This document shows positions 1 to 37,062 of a DNA stretch of 37,643 bases, one piece after another (the stretch's first letter is position 1; every line of letters begins with the position of its first letter). The notes under the pieces were generated by a model that saw only the letters and a list, made by a program, of their open reading frames with translations, had not been told where the DNA came from and ran no database searches. Position numbers and translations under genes: made by a program. Source of the stretch: a virus; IMG/VR virus record IMGVR_UViG_3300043958_000061, positions 1 to 37,643 of that record; one strand, 5' to 3'.

Positions 1-127
1 TATGGGCCCACCGAACACGCCATCACTGACTGGAATCTTTTACAGAGCGCAACGTACTGGACGGCGCGACGAATCATCACTGACGACATTCCCGAGGAGG
101 AAGAAATGAACGACAACCAGGCATATA
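1..127. repeat. 127-bp terminal overlap identical to 37517..37643; circular-assembly closure rather than a biological terminal repeat
   Basis: Bases 1-127 (TATGGGCCCACCGAACACGCC...AACCAGGCATATA) recur exactly as the last 127 bases. The overlap lies inside an open reading frame. Confidence 0.9.
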
Positions 128-378
128 TGCTCGAACAACTCTTTGCAGACCGCAAAGCACAAGCCGAATCCCGGTGGGCGATCAACCAGATCCGAGGGAC
201 AGATATCCCACGCATCAACGGCGTCCTCGCCGCCCAAGGCGAGGCGATCAAGCAGCTCTCCGGAGGCACTATCGACATGGACGCGATCACCGCCGCCGCT
301 GAGAAAGGCGCTAAAGAGGGTGCAGCGGCCATCACCGCTGCCGACGTCGCCGCACAACTCGAAGTGAAAGCGAAGTAA
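1..378 (+). CDS. Endolysin, C-terminal part (continuation of 37127..37643 across the circular junction); non-catalytic C-terminal domain
   Basis: Frame 1 is open from base 1 to the TAA at 376-378. It is in frame with the ORF that runs off the window end (position 37517 equals position 1). The ORF track only shows the internal Met at 106. Confidence 0.8.
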   Translation, partial: YGPTEHAITDWNLLQSATYWTARRIITDDIPEEEEMNDNQAYMLEQLFADRKAQAESRWAINQIRGTDIPRINGVLAAQGEAIKQLSGGTIDMDAITAAAEKGAKEGAAAITAADVAAQLEVKAK

Positions 379-381
379 CCC

Positions 382-669
382 ATGAACACCAACGATTCAA
401 CTATCCAACAGGTAGCCACCCGCATGATCCCCGAGAAAGTCCGTTGGGGTATCCTCCTCGCCGTCTTTGTCTTGCAGTCGGTCACGGCCGCGCTTCTCGC
501 CGCATATTCGGCGGTCGGGGAAGACTCGCCCACATGGCTAGCGTTTGCTGCGGCGTTCCTGCTCGCGATCTCCGCACCAGTCACTCTCCTCGCGGCCGTC
601 AACGTCACCAAAACACCGACTGACACGGCGATCGCCACAGGAGCCGCGACCTCTACCGACGCGGGGTGA
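382..669 (+). CDS. Holin (two predicted transmembrane helices)
   Basis: 95 aa with two hydrophobic stretches (WGILLAVFVLQSVTAALLAAY and WLAFAAAFLLAISAPVTLLAAV). It lies immediately after the endolysin. Confidence 0.7.
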   Translation: MNTNDSTIQQVATRMIPEKVRWGILLAVFVLQSVTAALLAAYSAVGEDSPTWLAFAAAFLLAISAPVTLLAAVNVTKTPTDTAIATGAATSTDAG

Positions 670-672
670 CCT

Positions 673-942
673 ATGGGCGGAATTGATACGGGCATCATCG
701 TCGCGGCTATCGCGGCAGTAGGAGGAGTCGCGGTGGCGTGGATCAAATGGCGGACCGATAAAGAGTCGAACGCTATCGCCGTCTTGCGGGTCCTCGTGGA
801 AGAACAAGGCGACGAACTGGAGACGCTCAGGAGCCGTGTGGACGCGCTGGAGCGTGAACGGCAGTCCGATCACGAGTATATCCAGATTTTGCGGGATCAT
901 ATTTATAAGCGACTTCCGCCGCCGCCGCCCCCGCACCCATAA
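673..942 (+). CDS. Lysis-cassette membrane protein (N-terminal TM helix, coiled coil, poly-Pro tail)
   Basis: 89 aa with an N-terminal hydrophobic helix (IIVAAIAAVGGVAVAWI), a charged helical region and a C-terminal PPPPPPPHP. It is the last gene before a strong terminator. Confidence 0.55.
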   Translation: MGGIDTGIIVAAIAAVGGVAVAWIKWRTDKESNAIAVLRVLVEEQGDELETLRSRVDALERERQSDHEYIQILRDHIYKRLPPPPPPHP

Positions 943-949
943 AAACTTT

Positions 950-987
950 CCCCGGTCTCACCTGATGGTGGGGCCGGGGAGTTTTTT
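950..987. terminator. Bidirectional intrinsic terminator between the lysis cassette (+) and the leftward accessory operon with its mini-array (-)
   Basis: 13-bp stem CCCCGGTCTCACC / GGTGGGGCCGGGG with loop TGAT. It is followed by a T6 run on + and flanked by A/T runs on -. Confidence 0.8.
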
Positions 988-1073
988 ATACCCCGTCTGC
1001 ACGGGGAACATTCCTGCTGCACCGATATTTGGTTAACGTAATATCGGCTCATCCCCGTCTGCACGGGGAACAT
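983..1073 (-). CRISPR. Cas-less type I-E-like mini-CRISPR array: repeat (1073..1045), 33-nt spacer (1044..1012), 3'-degenerate repeat (1011..983)
   Basis: Minus-strand repeat 1 is ATGTTCCCCGTGCAGACGGGGATGAGCCG and repeat 2 is ATGTTCCCCGTGCAGACGGGGTATAAAAA, with a 62-bp period. Each has a 6-bp stem and 4-nt loop (CCCCGT GCAG ACGGGG) and GTTCCCCG...CGGGGATGAGCCG flanks, as in I-E repeats such as E. coli GAGTTCCCCGCGCCAGCGGGGATAAACCG. Confidence 0.8.
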
Positions 1074-1086
1074 TGACTCGATGGTA

Positions 1087-1710
1087 TCACTCCTCCCTGG
1101 CTTGGGCGCGGGTTTTCATCTGATAGATCGCGGAGCGGTCAATCTTGTAGCGGCGGGCGAGCGTGGTGGCAGATTCGCCATCCGCGAGCGCCTGGAGGAT
1201 CATACGGTCGCGTTTTTCGACGAGGGTAGCGGCGAGTCTGCGGGCGGCTTCTAGCGCTGCCTGGGTGGGGTCGAGGTTGGTGTGCCAGTCGTCGAGGGCG
1301 GCGAGCTCTTTCCGGTAGGAGGCTTGCATGATTTCGGCGGAGTTGGACCCTGGGTCTGTGCCCTTGTATTGGGTGGGGAGTCGGTGGCCGTGGTCGGTGC
1401 GGGCTTCCCATGCGGGGGTGATCTGCCAGGTTCCGAGGTGGTAGGTGGCGCGGTGTGGACGGCCTGAGGGGACGATCCGTTTCGGGTTCCGCTCGTCGGG
1501 CACTCCGGCAGTGACGAGGAGGATTGAGGGTTCTTCTTTCTTGTCGTCGGGGTCGTCAGGTTTTTTGTCTCCGTCGTGGAGGATGTCCCAGACGATGATC
1601 CAGCCGTCTGCCTGGGCGTCGGTGCCGTCTGCGAGCTGGTAGACGTTTTTTACGGGGTAGGCGGTGCCGGGCTGGTAGTCGATGAGGCCGGCGGTGACGG
1701 TGTGCTCCAT
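1087..1710 (-). CDS. Hypothetical protein with C-terminal helix-turn-helix (candidate regulator of the accessory operon)
   Basis: 207 aa. The RBS GAAAGGAA precedes the ATG at 1710. The C-terminal segment LADGESATTLARRYKIDRSAIYQMK looks like a resolvase/sigma-r4-type HTH. I do not recognise the N-terminal domain. Confidence 0.7.
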   Translation of the reverse strand: MEHTVTAGLIDYQPGTAYPVKNVYQLADGTDAQADGWIIVWDILHDGDKKPDDPDDKKEEPSILLVTAGVPDERNPKRIVPSGRPHRATYHLGTWQITPAWEARTDHGHRLPTQYKGTDPGSNSAEIMQASYRKELAALDDWHTNLDPTQAALEAARRLAATLVEKRDRMILQALADGESATTLARRYKIDRSAIYQMKTRAQAREE

Positions 1711-1734
1711 GAGCGGGGTTCCTTTCTTCGGGGT

Positions 1735-2139
1735 TTAGTAGATCTCTTCGGCATGGTCGAGGATCGCGGTGTAGGCGTCGATGCCGACGTGTCCGGTCTC
1801 GTACTGCCAGTCGACTAGGTCGGAGACGATCTGGAAGAAGTGTTCCATGGTCTCGGCGTCGACGAGTTCGGCGGTGGTGGGGAGGGTGAGGCGCTCGCCC
1901 ATCCATGCGTCGCATGGAGTGTCCTCGGACTCGGGGCCGTCGATGCGGACGATGACCGGATCCGAGGCTTCGATCGCCATGACTGAGATGTAGGCGGCGA
2001 GCTCAGGGAGGGTGTCCATGCCAGAGACTCCGTGGCGTACAGCGTCGTCGTCTCCGTCCATGGGGAAGGAGTACTGCTGCTCTGGGTCGAGCAGGTCGCT
2101 GATGTCGCGGGACTTGTCTTGCATCCGGTAGGTTTCCAT
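1735..2139 (-). CDS. Highly acidic hypothetical protein (candidate DNA mimic / anti-defence protein)
   Basis: 134 aa. The RBS GAGGAAAAG precedes the ATG at 2139. By my count it has 31 D/E against 6 K/R. It is the first gene of a two-gene leftward operon, 24 nt upstream of the next CDS. Confidence 0.7.
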   Translation of the reverse strand: METYRMQDKSRDISDLLDPEQQYSFPMDGDDDAVRHGVSGMDTLPELAAYISVMAIEASDPVIVRIDGPESEDTPCDAWMGERLTLPTTAELVDAETMEHFFQIVSDLVDWQYETGHVGIDAYTAILDHAEEIY

Positions 2140-2156
2140 TTTCTTTTCCTCTCTGC

Positions 2157-2198
2157 CTTACATTGTCTAGTGTACTCTACACTAGACACTAATGTAAG
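2157..2198 (-). promoter_or_regulatory. Imperfect 42-bp palindrome overlapping a candidate sigma70-like promoter of the leftward accessory operon
   Basis: CTTACATTGTCTAGTGTA-CTC-TACACTAGACACTAATGTAAG. On the minus strand, TTACAT (2197..2192), a 17-nt spacer and TACACT (2174..2169) lie inside the dyad. The local region is AT-rich. Confidence 0.45.
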
Positions 2199-2338
2199 AG
2201 GAAAACCATCAATAAATATGCATCACATCACACGCGTGGATTACCGCCTGCACGGATAGCCCACGCCCCGCACGATCACGGCCGGCAGACGTTTTTGATG
2301 GTTTTGATACGGTCCGGGGAAGTAAAAACGAGGGGAAA

Positions 2339-3610
2339 TCACGCCTCAAGAGGAGGCTGTGCCGAACCTTCCAGGTCGAGAAGTTTTGCCACCTGCTCGA
2401 GAGCCTTCGCCGTCTGCGCTGCCGTGACCGTCATGTATCCCTCGGACGTCACGATTGACGAATGTCCAAGTATTTGCGTTATCACCACAGGCTCGATATG
2501 CGCGGCCAGGAGAAGCGATGCTGTAGCATTCCTTGCCTCATGGAGCACGTAGTAGGTGTATGTCGATTTTCCTTGCGCGCCAGCTTTCACGCCCTTGTGG
2601 ATGCCCGCAACCTCTTGGAGGTGCTTCCATTGCGCGAGGTCGTGAGATTTGTTTTCGGGGATGCCGGACGCGTCGTGAGGCCACACGAGATTATATGGGG
2701 ATCCGGGCCAATGGGCTTTCCACGCGAGGAGCCTTTCACGCATCGCGGGGATCATCGGGATCGTCCGGTATCCGGCCCGCGATTTCGGCGGCGTGAGAAA
2801 ATATCGTCCGTACAGGCGGCGCACCTGCATGTCTGGCGGGATGGCGAACGCATCTTTTTCACGGTCAGAATACGGGAGTTCTTGCAGCTGCCACCTGATC
2901 GTGATGAGGTTACGCTGAAAATCGACTTGATCCCACGTGAGGCCAAGACACTCCCCCTGACGCATCCCTTGGAGTAATGCGGCGATCCAGCGAGAGCCGT
3001 CTTGGACGCCTTGCTGTGGGTTGCCTTCGATGGACCAGGAGAGGGCCGCGAGTTTTTTCGCGTCCTCTACTGGTATCGCCGTCCGGTCGGACACTGAGGT
3101 TTTGGGGCGCCGCATCGCGATCACTGCGGCAGGGATGGGCTTTCCTTCCATCACCGCGTCCTTGAGGGCTTGCTGGAGGATCCGCTGCGTGTAGGCGATA
3201 AGCGTCGCGCTGCATCCTGCTTTGTCCATGACTGTGCGGACGGTTCGAATGTGGTCCGGGGTGAGGTCTTTTAGTTGCGTGTCACCGATGGTTGGGATCA
3301 CGTATTTTCGTAGTGGTCCGGATTCCGCGGCGTACGTTTTGGGTCGGACGGTTTGGGCACGTTCGGCTAGCCAGGTGTCTATCCAATGTTTGAGGTCCAT
3401 TCCGTGTGTTGGTGCGGCGACGGGGCCTTCGATGGAAACTTCCTGTTGCCGGTCGCGGAGCTTTTCTTGGCAGAGTTTTTTGGTTTTCGCGGTGACGGTG
3501 AGGCGGCGGCGTTTCCCGGACGCGGTGTATCCGGCGTCAAATTGGCCGCGCCAACGTCCGTCTGGAAGTTGGAAGATTGTTCCGGTGCCTTTGTCGCGTC
3601 GTGTCGTCAT
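2339..3610 (-). CDS. int: Tyrosine integrase
   Basis: N-terminus MTTRRDKGTGTIFQLPDGRWRGQF. Catalytic motifs are GMRQGECLGLTW (Arg), LHEARN (H-x-x-R) and LGHSSIVTSEGY (His/Tyr). The track ORF extends to 3679, but the Met at 3610 fits family N-termini. Confidence 0.9.
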   Translation of the reverse strand: MTTRRDKGTGTIFQLPDGRWRGQFDAGYTASGKRRRLTVTAKTKKLCQEKLRDRQQEVSIEGPVAAPTHGMDLKHWIDTWLAERAQTVRPKTYAAESGPLRKYVIPTIGDTQLKDLTPDHIRTVRTVMDKAGCSATLIAYTQRILQQALKDAVMEGKPIPAAVIAMRRPKTSVSDRTAIPVEDAKKLAALSWSIEGNPQQGVQDGSRWIAALLQGMRQGECLGLTWDQVDFQRNLITIRWQLQELPYSDREKDAFAIPPDMQVRRLYGRYFLTPPKSRAGYRTIPMIPAMRERLLAWKAHWPGSPYNLVWPHDASGIPENKSHDLAQWKHLQEVAGIHKGVKAGAQGKSTYTYYVLHEARNATASLLLAAHIEPVVITQILGHSSIVTSEGYMTVTAAQTAKALEQVAKLLDLEGSAQPPLEA

Positions 3611-3711
3611 GTTGGTTAGCCTATCCGGTAGCCTATCTGTGATACGTCTAGGGTATAGCGTAGGGCGGTCTTTCCGCAAGATTTCGCCAAAAAGTAGCGT
3701 TTACTATAGGG

Positions 3712-3766
3712 TATCCTACCGCCTCCTAAGCGGTAGGTCGAAGGTTCGAATCCTTTCGGGGGCACT
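3712..3766 (+). other. attP core candidate: 3' portion of a tRNA-Arg(CCT) gene (anticodon arm, variable loop, T-arm, 3' acceptor strand)
   Basis: ACCGC-CTCCTAA-GCGGT anticodon arm (anticodon CCT), AGGTC, GAAGG-TTCGAAT-CCTTT T-arm, and CGGGGGC-A acceptor plus discriminator. There is no matching 5' acceptor or D-arm upstream. It lies about 100 bp from the int start. Confidence 0.7.
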
Positions 3767-3877
3767 AGCATGAAATGGCGATATACCGCCGATCGGTCCG
3801 ACACGGCAGCTGCTCCGAACAGGTCCTCCAGTGGCGGAAATAGCCAATCGATTAGCCAAAGTGCGTCCCACAAAATG

Positions 3878-3911
3878 AAATAACCCCCAGCCGTGAAGCT
3901 GGGGGTTATTT
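3878..3911. terminator. Strong hairpin / bidirectional terminator
   Basis: AAATAACCCCCAGC-CGTGAA-GCTGGGGGTTATTT, a 14-bp perfect stem flanked by A/T runs on both sides. Confidence 0.7.
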
Positions 3912-3991
3912 CTTTATACGGAGTTAGTTCCTGCGCAGGGAATGTTTGTGGAATGGTTTCTGTCTCCTATGCCTGACCTATCCTTACCTAC

Positions 3992-4046
3992 TCTCCGGTG
4001 AGTCTCCGGTGAGTCACCGGTGAGTCACCGGTGAGTCACCGGTGAC
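3992..4046. repeat. Five tandem 11-bp units (TCTCCGGTGAG x2, TCACCGGTGAG x2, TCACCGGTGAC) containing the palindrome TCACCGGTGA
   Basis: Read directly. The period is 11 bp, about one helical turn. It lies between attP and the repressor gene. Confidence 0.9.
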
Positions 4047-4121
4047 AGGCAGACTAGACGGACGCTGTTCGAACGACTGTTCGAAATGTGTCCTTTCGAC
4101 ACAATATGTTAGTGTCATGGA

Positions 4122-4147
4122 CAAAAGTAGTGGCGGGCCCCGTAGAA
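4122..4147 (-). terminator. Hairpin downstream of the repressor gene
   Basis: GGCGGGCC-N10-GGCCCGCC, 17 nt after the repressor stop. The T-tract is weak. Confidence 0.35.
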
Positions 4148-4163
4148 GAGGCCCGCCGGTCGG

Positions 4164-4415
4164 TTACTGGTTTTCTTTTGCCCGTCTCTCGATCTCACTG
4201 AGGAGCTTCGAGAACGGGATGCCGAAAGCCGCCGCGATTGCCGCGAGCTGCACGGCGGTGGGGGATCGAATACCTTCCTCGTAAAGCCTGTACGAAGTTC
4301 TGGTAATTCCGGTCAGCCTCGCCGTTTCGGCTTGTGATTGCTGAGCGATTCCCCGCTCAGCTCGTAGAGTCTCAGCAGTTGCTAGGGCCCACCTTCTTTC
4401 TGTTTCCTGTTCCAT
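4164..4415 (-). CDS. cI-like XRE-family HTH repressor
   Basis: HTH segment QSQAETARLTGITRTSYRLYEEGIRSPTAVQLAAIAAAFGI. It is divergent from a Cro-like gene. The Met at 4415 lies 7 nt from a TAGGCT -10, so it may be leaderless. The track ORF reaches 4457. Confidence 0.8.
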   Translation of the reverse strand: MEQETERRWALATAETLRAERGIAQQSQAETARLTGITRTSYRLYEEGIRSPTAVQLAAIAAAFGIPFSKLLSEIERRAKENQ

Positions 4416-4511
4416 ACGAAACAGCCTAGCATCTGTACGGCAACAAATCAACGTCAATTAGATACACTTTTGCGCTTGCGCATGTTCCGAATGACTACTA
4501 GGATGTTTCAT
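4416..4511. promoter_or_regulatory. Genetic-switch intergenic region with back-to-back candidate promoters and a TGCGC-TT-GCGCA dyad
   Basis: Leftward promoter: TTGATT (4451..4446), 17 nt, TAGGCT (4428..4423), 7 nt, ATG. Rightward promoter: TTGCGC (4476..4481), 17 nt, TAGGAT (4499..4504), 7 nt, ATG at 4512. The dyad at 4471..4482 overlaps the rightward -35. Confidence 0.4.
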
Positions 4512-4754
4512 ATGGCGACACCAAACGAATTGAGCGATCGGCTCGCAGACGCGATCCGAGACGCAACAACAGCCGCGGGAGTCTCTCAACGAGAACTCGC
4601 CGCCCGCACGGGCATTCCACTTGTGACCATAAATCGCAAGCTCAACCACGCGAGCCCGTTCAACGCCATCGAGCTCGGAGCAATCTCCGAAGCCCTTGGC
4701 ACCTCCCTCGTCGATCTCGCCCTCAAGGCCGAAAGGCAGCTTGTACGGGCATGA
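4512..4754 (+). CDS. Cro-like XRE-family HTH regulator
   Basis: MATPNELSDRL...GVSQRELAARTGIPLVTINRKLN. It is divergent from the repressor. The track ORF starts at 4470, but ATG 4512 fits a leaderless start. Confidence 0.75.
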   Translation: MATPNELSDRLADAIRDATTAAGVSQRELAARTGIPLVTINRKLNHASPFNAIELGAISEALGTSLVDLALKAERQLVRA

Positions 4755-4804
4755 GAAAAATGCCTTCACCCGTTGCTGCGGGTGAAGGCGATGAAAGGAA
4801 AACA

Positions 4805-5596
4805 ATGAATCAGATTATCCCATTCACCTACGAGTCTAGCGAGCTACGCACGCTCACGCTAGACGGCGAACCATGGTTTATCGCTGCGGACGTATGCAAA
4901 ATCCTAGAAATTGCGAATCCGACCGACGCAATCAAGCGTCTTGATGAGGACGAGAAGGCTAGATTCAATCTAGGGTTGCCTGGTGGCGGCACAAACGTTG
5001 TCAACGAGTCTGGTTTATACAATCTCATTCTCGGCTCACGCAAGCCAGAAGCTAAAGAGTTTAAGCGCTGGGTGACTCACGAAGTTATCCCCTCGATCCG
5101 CAAGACTGGATCATATGGTACGCCTCAACTCTCCGGCCCGGCGCTCTACCTAGCGGCTATCGAGCAGGCGCAGAGCGAAATTGCGGCCCTCGAAGCGAAA
5201 ACCCGCGAGCTGGAACCGAAAGCTGATTCGTTTGATGGCTTCCTCTCCTCGAGAGGAGACTACAGCCTCAACGAGGGCGCGAAACTCCTCGCCCGTAACG
5301 GCGTACCAGACATCGGGCAAAACCGGCTCCGAGATCACCTGCTGCGGTGGGGCTGGCTCTATCGAGGCCGCAAGAATCGCCTCCGCGCCGCACAGGCCGC
5401 AATCGAAGCCGGCAGACTCGCCGAGCGCACCTCCTGGTACTACGACGACGAGACCGGCGAAAAGCTCGCCGGAGCAGTCCAGGCAGTCATCACACCGAAA
5501 GGCCTCGACGACGTGAAGGCGCGGCTCATGCGCGAACAAGGATTCGCCCTCGTCGATGCTGACGGCAAGGTACTCGCGGAAGTGGAGGCGTCCTGA
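4805..5596 (+). CDS. Antirepressor (Bro-N domain plus KilAC/ANT-like C-terminal domain)
   Basis: N-terminus IIPFTYESSELRTLTLDGEPWFIAADVCKILEI...ESGLYNLILGSRKPEAKEFKRWVTHEVIPSIRKTG is a typical Bro-N. The RBS AAAGGAAAA precedes ATG 4805. Confidence 0.85.
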   Translation: MNQIIPFTYESSELRTLTLDGEPWFIAADVCKILEIANPTDAIKRLDEDEKARFNLGLPGGGTNVVNESGLYNLILGSRKPEAKEFKRWVTHEVIPSIRKTGSYGTPQLSGPALYLAAIEQAQSEIAALEAKTRELEPKADSFDGFLSSRGDYSLNEGAKLLARNGVPDIGQNRLRDHLLRWGWLYRGRKNRLRAAQAAIEAGRLAERTSWYYDDETGEKLAGAVQAVITPKGLDDVKARLMREQGFALVDADGKVLAEVEAS

Positions 5597-5793
5597 TGCG
5601 TTGGATGACCGCGAAAGAAGCCTCCGAGGTTGTGCCATTTTCTGAGATCACGCTCAAGCGCTGCATGAAGCGTGCCAAGCCGGTGGAAGGCGAATTGCCG
5701 CCACTGCGTGCAAAAAAAGATCCGCAAGGACGCTGGATCGTCACCGACAAAGCATTAGAGGACTGGATGAACCGAGTCCTCACGCAGAAGTAG
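5596..5793 (+). CDS. Small HTH DNA-binding protein, excisionase-like
   Basis: 65 aa. MTAKEASEVVPFSEITLKRCMKR...WIVTDKALEDWM resembles the MerR/Xis-type HTH_17 pattern. Confidence 0.55.
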   Translation: MRWMTAKEASEVVPFSEITLKRCMKRAKPVEGELPPLRAKKDPQGRWIVTDKALEDWMNRVLTQK

Positions 5794-5805
5794 AAAGGCC
5801 ATGAA

Positions 5806-6006
5806 ATGTACACGGATGAAGCGGTAGAGAAGTTGCTTGCGAGCTTGAGGATGGAGAGTCGCATCAAACAAACCGTCATGGAGGGGTACGAGGGCTACAC
5901 AGAGCTGAAAACAATTGCAGAGATGGCGCACCAGCAATCGAAAATCTCACTAGATATCGCCGAAACCTGGGCCGACCGCTACCACATCGAGGAGGCAGCG
6001 AAATGA
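5806..6006 (+). CDS. Hypothetical protein
   Basis: 66-aa ORF ending EEAAK* with an ATGA overlap to the next gene. Confidence 0.55.
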   Translation: MYTDEAVEKLLASLRMESRIKQTVMEGYEGYTELKTIAEMAHQQSKISLDIAETWADRYHIEEAAK

Positions 6007-36157: not shown

Positions 36158-36403
36158 ATGGAGTCGAATTTGTTGAAGATTGCCCGCGCAGTGGACGGGG
36201 ATGATCTTTTCGCCATGCGCGTCAAAATCGCGTGCGAGCTCAAAAAAATAACGTACAGCCGGGATGTTCTGCTCACGGTAGCGCAAGCCGTAGCAGACCA
36301 TATCACGGTCGACGACGCGGGCGCTGTCGATACGACAGGTGTCCCGGATGAGGCGATCATAGATGCGCTACCGGCAGCTACACAGACAGGGGAGGCAGTA
36401 TGA
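36158..36403 (+). CDS. Hypothetical protein (tail module)
   Basis: 81 aa, coupled to the next gene by ATGA. Confidence 0.5.
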   Translation: MESNLLKIARAVDGDDLFAMRVKIACELKKITYSRDVLLTVAQAVADHITVDDAGAVDTTGVPDEAIIDALPAATQTGEAV

Positions 36404-37062
36404 CGGATACGACATGGCGAGGTGTCCCGCTGATCGAAGCTGGCGACGGGATACTGACGTCGCTCGCGCTACTCGCAAACAATCTTAATGTTGGTGTCCC
36501 GGTGGCTAGCATTGCTGCCGCACGCACGCTCCTCACGCAGGCAGAGGCGGATGGCGTCGCACCAACCTCGTCAAATCCCGCACTTTTCATGGTCGGTGAG
36601 GGAGTGAAACGTGTTTTGTACACGTCGGACGGATCCAAAACTGGCGGGGTGTGGGCGCTCTCTCCCGTCAACGAGCCGTCGCGCGCTAGGTTCGGCCGTG
36701 GAGAGGATTCTGGCGTGACCCGCAGCCTCTCCCAGGGAGATACGCTTACCGTCATCAGCGGGGCGCTCCCATCAGCACCCTACGATCGTGCAATCAGCAT
36801 GGAAGCAATCTGCTATGGGTCTGTGACTGGCAATATTTGGTTGCGGATCTATCCTCCGGGAGAAGCGTATGTTTCGGCCAGGTTTTCGTCTGGTGATCAG
36901 CAGTCGCAGCCACTCCCGGCGCGGGGAAAGATCCTCGCTGGGCAGTCTCCCGAGTTGAGGGTCGCCGTCGTTGGTGGTGCGGGGGGAGGGAGCATCACGT
37001 TTGGTACCACGGCAGATAACACGGTTCTTTTCGTGGATGCATTCCCGATCACGATGGCCTGA
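36400..37062 (+). CDS. Hypothetical / minor tail protein
   Basis: 220 aa. It is the last structural gene and is followed by a terminator. Confidence 0.55.
   Translation: MTDTTWRGVPLIEAGDGILTSLALLANNLNVGVPVASIAAARTLLTQAEADGVAPTSSNPALFMVGEGVKRVLYTSDGSKTGGVWALSPVNEPSRARFGRGEDSGVTRSLSQGDTLTVISGALPSAPYDRAISMEAICYGSVTGNIWLRIYPPGEAYVSARFSSGDQQSQPLPARGKILAGQSPELRVAVVGGAGGGSITFGTTADNTVLFVDAFPITMA

Follow-up and report, generated by a model that had tools for sequence, protein, structure and literature searches.

Small CRISPR arrays carried by viruses are already known; few have been traced in actinophages, and few cases let one guide be compared across diverged relatives. In the Sulfolobales viruses SPV1 and SPV2 (Medvedeva et al. 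2019, PMC6858448; reviewed in PMC11656645), a one-spacer array without cas genes has repeats like those of the presumed host family, and its spacer is related to a gene of a sister virus that the carrier either lacks or mismatches. Indeed, most spacers of viral mini-arrays target related viruses (PMC11656645, PMC6858448). Other phage elements turn the parts of an array against the host system. In Racrs, the anti-CRISPR is an RNA that consists of a solitary repeat unit (Camara-Wilpert et al. 2023, PMC10651486). Cracrs are regulatory anti-CRISPRs, and viral Cracr RNAs have been reported for type I-E and for Actinomycetota (bioRxiv 10.1101/2024.10.29.618823).

The locus considered here belongs to a complete viral contig of 37.6 kb with terminal repeats (IMG/VR record IMGVR_UViG_3300043958_000061); the whole stretch of 37,643 nucleotides is called the window below. 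Its mini-array holds a single spacer that is low in G+C and largely palindromic, and this had been taken in the original prediction to indicate a decoy or a binding site as much as a guide. Does such an odd-looking spacer signal a role other than guiding? Our reading, to which we give a probability of about 0.5, is that the array encodes an ordinary targeting guide against rival phages, and that its low G+C content and palindromy are explained by the origin of the spacer together with three bases of the repeat.

Genomic setting and array anatomy

The window has a G+C content of 55-65% and encodes a tyrosine integrase, a cI/cro-like switch and a large terminase ~52% identical to its actinophage counterparts. 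The array lies between the lysis genes, which run on the plus strand and end at 942, and the gene of a 207-aa protein on the minus strand (1710..1087). It begins right behind the stop codon of the latter gene and occupies its 3′ tail. The gene of a 134-aa acidic protein (1735..2139, minus strand) is the first of this leftward unit of two genes and array. A two-way intrinsic terminator (948..987) is common to the lysis genes on the plus strand and to the 207-aa gene plus array on the minus strand, and it is kept in relatives. Just upstream of the leftward unit, at 2164..2188, there is a perfect palindrome with 11-bp arms (TGTCTAGTGTA ctc TACACTAGACA), located within a stretch that is 96% identical in a mosaic relative (G001); it is likely the operator of the unit. 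Between attP and the repressor gene (3992-4046), 11-bp head-to-tail units containing TCACCGGTGA surfaced in the palindrome scan as overlapping palindromes.

The two proteins of the leftward unit are hard to place. Pfam has no family for either, PHROGs returned nothing for the 134-aa protein, and for the 207-aa protein it gave weak HTH-type matches only (E 0.009 or worse). The structure model of the 207-aa protein (pLDDT 82) predicts a beta-rich domain (residues 5-105), a 50-residue helix and a C-terminal HTH; a Foldseek search of the PDB with this model produced no match at E ≤0.001. Very few relatives of the protein were found among 5.8 billion proteins, and GenBank phages gave no match either to the protein by tblastn or to window positions 1-6000 by megablast. 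No Rfam family reached its gathering score, and ARAGORN detected no tRNA. Four public runs mapped on positions 2200-4500 of L003, a relative with the same array, yielded short contigs and no informative spacer variants among those listed; in the one RNA run, coverage was seen at the array flanks only (2201-2377 and 4423-4500).

Read on the minus strand, the array starts with a full 29-nt repeat (ATGTTCCCCGTGCAGACGGGGATGAGCCG, 1045..1073) whose hairpin has 6 bp and whose 8-nt 5′ handle, ATGAGCCG, is intact. It fits the type I-E pattern, in which a G+C-rich hairpin (CCCC...GGGG) precedes an 8-nt handle ATGAGCC-N within a repeat of 29 nt. The 33-nt spacer (ATATTACGTTAACCAAATATCGGTGCAGCAGGA, 1012..1044) comes next, and then a second repeat of which only the 21-nt hairpin part, corresponding to the 3′ handle, is present (ATGTTCCCCGTGCAGACGGGG, 991..1011). 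The 5′-handle sequence is gone there, its place at 983-990 being taken by TATAAAAA. The 22-nt repeat cores (991-1012 and 1053-1074) are identical and have no further copy in the window. The repeat period of 62 nt compares with 61-62 nt in Actinomycetaceae arrays and agrees with the type I-E norm of 32-33-nt spacers. With two repeats and a full spacer, the window copy is not the solitary repeat by which Racrs are recognized; judged by its sequence, this type I-E layout should be able to yield exactly one crRNA from the minus strand. In every related array, too, the last repeat is without its handle part. The 6-bp stem is kept in all 17 repeat copies from eight related loci (16 of them with 6/6 pairs), and its inner two pairs vary on both sides among relatives (GT/AC, AC/GT, TC/GA, GC/GC). 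These compensatory changes indicate that the repeat hairpins are under selection as RNA.

Named relatives of the integrase point to Trueperella and Schaalia, and the host is likely an Actinomyces-like bacterium of the Actinomycetaceae. Long arrays whose repeats differ from that of the phage by 2-3 mismatches in a 26-nt core are present in 6 of 201 genomes from the family of Schaalia sp. ZJ405 and in none of 401 genomes drawn across the phylum. The nearest host-family repeats have two mismatches in 26 nt; none of the family's 338 species genomes has a repeat within one mismatch, which places the exact host outside the species representatives. The exact 19-nt repeat core, searched in 185,579 species genomes, gave six single matches, about the chance expectation by our own estimate, and no arrays. 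Two JGI metagenome arrays that match the repeat pattern turned out to be generic actinobacterial type I-E arrays with one variant repeat each, and neither represents the host. None of 113 natural spacers of the host family matches the phage or its relatives.

In three genomes of this family (G551, G406 and G492), the cas3-cse1 intergenic region harbours a degenerate mini-CRISPR of CreR type (~7225-7499 of L048 in G551:C4; upstream of cse1 of L051 in G406:C31; ~8979-9432 of L047 in G492:C1). It comprises a repeat-like hairpin with the handle AAGTGGAGCC, a spacer of ~29 nt and a second, weak hairpin, and there is an AT-rich promoter just downstream. From its sequence, it looks like a CreR-type autoregulator of the host. 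The phage spacer has no similarity to the CreR-like spacers or to the cas3-cse1 regions of these three genomes, the best seed run being 7 nt with no plausible PAM. The 7-nt match of the spacer start to the cse1 promoter of G551 was dismissed as chance (~4% for the region, own estimate), having no PAM. The mark of a Cracr, at least nine PAM-proximal bases in common with a CreR or CreA spacer or with a cas or creT promoter, was not found in G551, G406 and G492, none of which is the true host.

Composition, dyad and fold of the spacer

The unusual features on which the original prediction had been based are real. A recount agrees with 13 G+C in 33 positions (39%) at 1012-1044, in a GC-rich genome. 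The dyad at 1022-1047 (CCGATATTTGGTTAACGTAATATCGG on the plus strand) was likewise confirmed in all its details: it has 8-bp arms (CCGATATT / AATATCGG) around a central GTTAAC and extends 3 nt into the repeat handle. The arms are perfect and the GTTAAC centre lies on the same axis, so that 11 of 13 pairs are formed. The CGG at 1045-1047 is the complement of the final 3 nt of the handle. In RNA, the dyad corresponds to a 9-bp stem in which the end of the 5′ handle and spacer nucleotides 1-5 pair with spacer nucleotides 16-24.

How unusual this is depends on the yardstick. Perfect dyads with 8-bp arms and a loop of ≤12 nt are expected ~10 times in a shuffled genome and were observed as 29 overlapping hits at ~14 places, so such a dyad somewhere in the genome is unremarkable; the chance of one within a given 36-nt stretch is ~1%. 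We compared the spacer with 113 natural spacers from five Actinomycetaceae type I-E arrays. The longest perfect stem among them is 7 and none reaches 8. G+C of ≤40% occurs in 5.3% of these spacers, and 33-nt windows with ≤13 G+C make up 2.3% of the phage's own. Handle plus spacer fold at -10.4 kcal/mol. Only 2.8% of composition-matched shuffles fold as well, but 30% of the 113 natural handle-plus-spacer RNAs, being richer in G+C, are equally or more stable. Thus, the spacer dyad is real, moderately unusual in shape and ordinary in stability. The expectation that a folded guide would target poorly loses its force here, since natural crRNAs of the likely host family cover a range that includes this fold.

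The same comparison was extended to five largely independent phage-borne spacers, for which the fractions of shuffles are 0.028, 0.034, 0.42, 0.06 and 0.012. Their Fisher combination, calculated by hand, is ~0.001, meaning that these handle-plus-spacer RNAs fold better than shuffles. Spacer 2 of L027 and spacer 3 of L030 have a common 3′ motif, TGATCGAAG, that pairs with the 5′ handle GTGATCC; the proteins of these two phages show 36% and 34% identity, respectively, to that of the window.

Spacer variation and a related tail-gene segment

The same array is found in four other phage contigs (L003, L017, L018 and L019), and in L003 its 115 nt are 100% identical to the window although the flanks differ. 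In L022, where the 207-aa protein is 91% identical, the spacer reads ATATTACGTTAACCGCCTATCGGTGCAATAAAA; in L023 (60% identity) the repeats are different, with compensated stems, and the spacer is AGATTACGTTGGCTATCAGTCGAGAGATCGGC. L020, L021 and L026 have a single hybrid repeat, a clean product of recombination between repeats 1 and 2 that removed the spacer and retained the terminator (1385-1480 in L020, 890-990 in L026). L027 and L028, at 36% in the protein alignment, have three repeats and two spacers (4540-4790 in L027), and L030, at 34% in the same alignment, has at least four repeats (1190-1436). The more distant homologues L034 and L035 have no array. We see in this a conserved gene-array module.

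Across several lineages, phage homologues of the N-terminal domain of the 207-aa protein are fused to various HTH types, and behind them stand type I-E mini-arrays whose repeats number from one to four or more. In L026 (644-898), an 84-aa protein (P0004) begins with the same 13 residues as the 134-aa acidic protein and goes on with the coiled-coil/HTH end of the 207-aa protein, and the lone repeat stands behind it; this looks like a deletion derivative of the operon.

Within this family, the two ends of the spacer have had different fates. Between the window and L022, 8 of 33 spacer positions differ, none of them among the first 14 and all eight among the 19 positions 15-33. The 207-aa gene differs at 40 of 624 nt in the same pair, including 10 of 104 four-fold sites (9.6%), and none of its 19-nt windows has eight differences. 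L023 keeps nine of the first ten spacer bases. The dyad, for its part, lacks conservation. Its arms shrink from 8 bp in the window to 6 bp in L022, through an uncompensated change of AA to CC, and L023 has no dyad at that position, having instead a different 6-bp pairing between handle and spacer. The spacer therefore behaves neither as an RNA or site frozen by its function nor as filler under neutral drift: the seed end stays fixed, and the distal end turns over. The original prediction had proposed to read a conserved spacer as a functional RNA or site and a variable one as a sign of targeting. The comparison comes down on the side of targeting: only near-identical phages have the same spacer, L022 departs from it at 8 of 33 positions and L023 over most of its length, and in other relatives it is deleted.

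A scan of the spacers against all fetched phage DNA (111 kb) revealed where the spacer may come from. Its positions 17-31 (ATATCGGTGCAGCAG) are matched exactly, and in register, in a 166-aa gene of L003 (2260..2760) and of L020 that sits just upstream of the endolysin gene. A 15-nt match to the same 111 kb was obtained with 1 of 3000 shuffled spacers. Over the whole spacer, 20-21 of 33 positions agree with the gene in L003 and L020; the exact match lies in the PAM-distal half, the flanks are TCC and GCC, and the seed half is unrelated to the gene at the matched site. In the reading frame of the gene, its segment NFKGYISVQQ corresponds to YYVNQISVQQ in the window spacer, YYVNRLSVQ* in L022 and DYVGYQSRDR in L023, the L023 spacer having GGC TAT where the gene has GGT TAC.

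The aligned segment is the most AT-rich 33-nt window of the gene (33% G+C, against 56.5% for the gene as a whole), which accounts for the low G+C content of the spacer. The right arm of the dyad, ATATCGG, represents Ile-Ser-Val codons of the putative source gene, and the left arm is the CCG of the repeat joined to ATATT, so that with such an origin the palindrome would arise as a by-product. One suggestion of the original prediction was that the protospacer is itself a palindromic operator or origin-type site in rival phages. It comes closest of the three in making the odd sequence a property of the protospacer, but the related stretch codes for a minor-tail protein and is no operator or origin.

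Over its N-terminal 60 residues, the 166-aa protein matches proteins of Microbacterium phages that are annotated as minor tail proteins. The C-terminal half varies, with at least two unrelated versions, as would be expected of a host-recognition protein. At the position of the tail gene, the window phage has an unrelated 220-aa gene. In the carrier L003, the seed half of the guide is mismatched over its full length, and TCC stands at the PAM position. The difference amounts to a cassette swap: a 166-aa minor-tail gene with an amidase endolysin in L003 (2260-2760) against the unrelated 220-aa gene with an NlpC/P60 endolysin in the window (36400-37062). The array region that adjoins the swapped cassette is common to both relatives.

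A full protospacer was found neither in IMG/VR nor in GenBank phages nor in the fetched relatives, where the 15-nt match to the tail gene was the only one. IMG/VR was queried with the 26-mer, with a 25-mer followed by NNN and with a codon-degenerate form of YYVNQISVQQ, and GenBank phages were searched by blastn; these returned the arrays themselves or chance matches at E=4. A search for further members of the 166-aa gene yielded four protein clusters and the same IMG/VR contig, with the YYVNQ allele in none of them.

Weighing the explanations against known systems

The explanation that we favour, a targeting guide, owes its weight to the tail-gene match, the canonical architecture, the variable spacer and the published rule for viral mini-arrays (PMC11656645). 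Minus-strand transcription of the 207-aa HTH gene would run on into the cas-less type I-E array of the phage at its tail, and Cas6e of the host would cut behind each repeat hairpin. This would release one crRNA consisting of the 8-nt handle, the 33-nt spacer and the 21-nt hairpin. Host Cascade would load it and, with Cas3, attack DNA bearing the matching protospacer, and a fully matching target presumably exists. The spacer itself would derive from the variable C-terminal part of the small minor-tail gene in related phages, and the guide would keep rival phages out of a cell that is lysogenic or co-infected. From the tail-gene segment the spacer would have inherited both its low G+C content and the right arm of the dyad, the left arm being formed by the repeat CCG and the first five spacer bases. 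On this view, the palindrome is a by-product, and neither a decoy nor a protein-binding site nor any other functional element. Self-avoidance also counts for targeting: the window phage is without the tail gene and L003 is mismatched in the seed.

Other observations are at odds with such a simple guide. The spacers of three diverged phages come from the same register of one site, for which independent acquisition is a poor explanation, and the L022 spacer has a stop codon in the proposed frame. Moreover, type I-E systems tolerate PAM-distal mismatches, and so the faster-than-neutral change at the distal end is not what simple target tracking predicts. A special form of guide, though rather unlikely, would address this: the HTH gene and mini-array might form a single-slot device whose spacer is repeatedly renewed from one hypervariable site of the rivals' receptor-binding tail gene, the seed being fixed and the distal part swapped faster than neutral. 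If so, spacer replacement in a phage array without cas genes would proceed via host Cas1-Cas2 or by recombination with the target. The hairpin between handle and seed might also be a processing or loading switch, and a dual role of the array in targeting and as an anti-CRISPR is possible.

Several alternatives would deny the spacer a target in rival phages. It is unlikely that the RNA acts in the manner of Cracrs, parking RNA-loaded Cascade on a host cas promoter or on that of a CRISPR-guarded toxin through partial PAM-proximal pairing, thereby switching immunity off and competing with immune crRNAs. Such a role would agree with the identity of the first 14 spacer bases in the window and L022 and of nine of the first ten in L023, while the rest diverged, and an AT-rich spacer would suit a promoter target. 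Moreover, the array stands in a small leftward unit with acidic and HTH proteins under a palindromic operator, reminiscent of anti-CRISPR loci, and the CreR-like mini-CRISPRs between cas3 and cse1 mean that a circuit open to hijacking is present in the likely host family. Yet the spacer is unlike the CreR-like spacers and cas3-cse1 regions of the three genomes (G551, G406, G492), it has the full canonical 33 nt where tested CracrIE have 21-24 nt, the 15-nt match to a phage tail gene would be unexpected, and the distal half has changed far faster than neutral, which is more than simple relaxed constraint. A decoy of the Racr kind, with repeat hairpins soaking up Cas6e and Cas7, a spacer that is mere filler and a handle hairpin that hinders Cascade assembly, strikes us as improbable. 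That L020, L021 and L026 hold a single repeat plus terminator at the same place, a form described for Racrs (PMC10651486), and that the five phage-borne RNAs fold better than shuffles (Fisher ~0.001) both speak for it; such a unit might titrate Cas6e or Cascade, as the original prediction had suggested. But a fold energy inside the natural crRNA range does not suit a decoy, the 5′ handle and 3′ hairpin are both intact so that a normal crRNA can form, and a filler should drift neutrally instead of combining a frozen seed with a distal part faster than neutral. The lone repeats, for their part, are exact products of recombination between repeats 1 and 2 and may be mere scars.

Alternatively, a protein such as the adjacent HTH protein might bind the dyad as DNA, or the dyad might belong to the terminator region of the convergent genes. 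A 26-bp near-perfect palindrome does lie beside an HTH gene, and palindromes cluster in the regulatory region of this phage. Binding by a protein is nevertheless very improbable: the dyad is unlike the operator at 2164-2188, the window has no second copy of its half-site, L022 shows uncompensated erosion of the arms, the dyad is absent in L023, and L020, L021 and L026 have lost the whole spacer while keeping the gene. As for termination, a separate strong terminator follows. Finally, an inert piece of a host array, captured and carried along as a neutral passenger, would fit with the lack of a detected target and with the loss of the spacer in some relatives; we hold this to be distinctly unlikely, as the window and L003 share 115 nt of array without a single difference despite differing flanks, arrays accompany homologues of the same gene down to 34-36% protein identity, the hairpins covary and the seed is conserved. 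The targeting guide thus remains our preferred reading.

The palindrome may matter less than its surroundings. More interesting is a gene family that, in several phage lineages, goes together with type I-E mini-arrays, some with a lone repeat and others with several spacers, and the likely host family has CreR-like regulators; here one could ask whether competition, counter-defence or both are what phage CRISPR RNAs are for.

Each of the known systems has something in common with this locus. With Racrs (PMC10651486), it shares repeat mimicry and sister phages that have a solitary repeat at the same locus; the window copy differs in having two repeats and a complete guide and can form a normal crRNA. 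The likeness to Cracrs (bioRxiv 10.1101/2024.10.29.618823) and CreR (bioRxiv 10.1101/2023.03.10.532045) extends to the layout, with the first repeat bearing a 5′ handle, the last reduced to its hairpin and a terminator directly after. As in Cracrs, the PAM-proximal part of the spacer is conserved, candidate anti-defence genes adjoin and the host family has CreR-like elements; unlike them, the spacer is of full length and matches no CreR spacer or cas promoter examined. The arrays of SPV1 and SPV2 (PMC6858448) resemble it in being cas-less and limited to one spacer, with repeats like those of the presumed host family, a spacer related to a sister-virus gene and a carrier that lacks or mismatches that gene. 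Here, in contrast, no fully matching target is seen, the array is of type I-E and resides in a temperate actinophage, where it has become a fixed 3′ tail to a conserved HTH gene, and diverged phages have spacers from the same register of one gene site.
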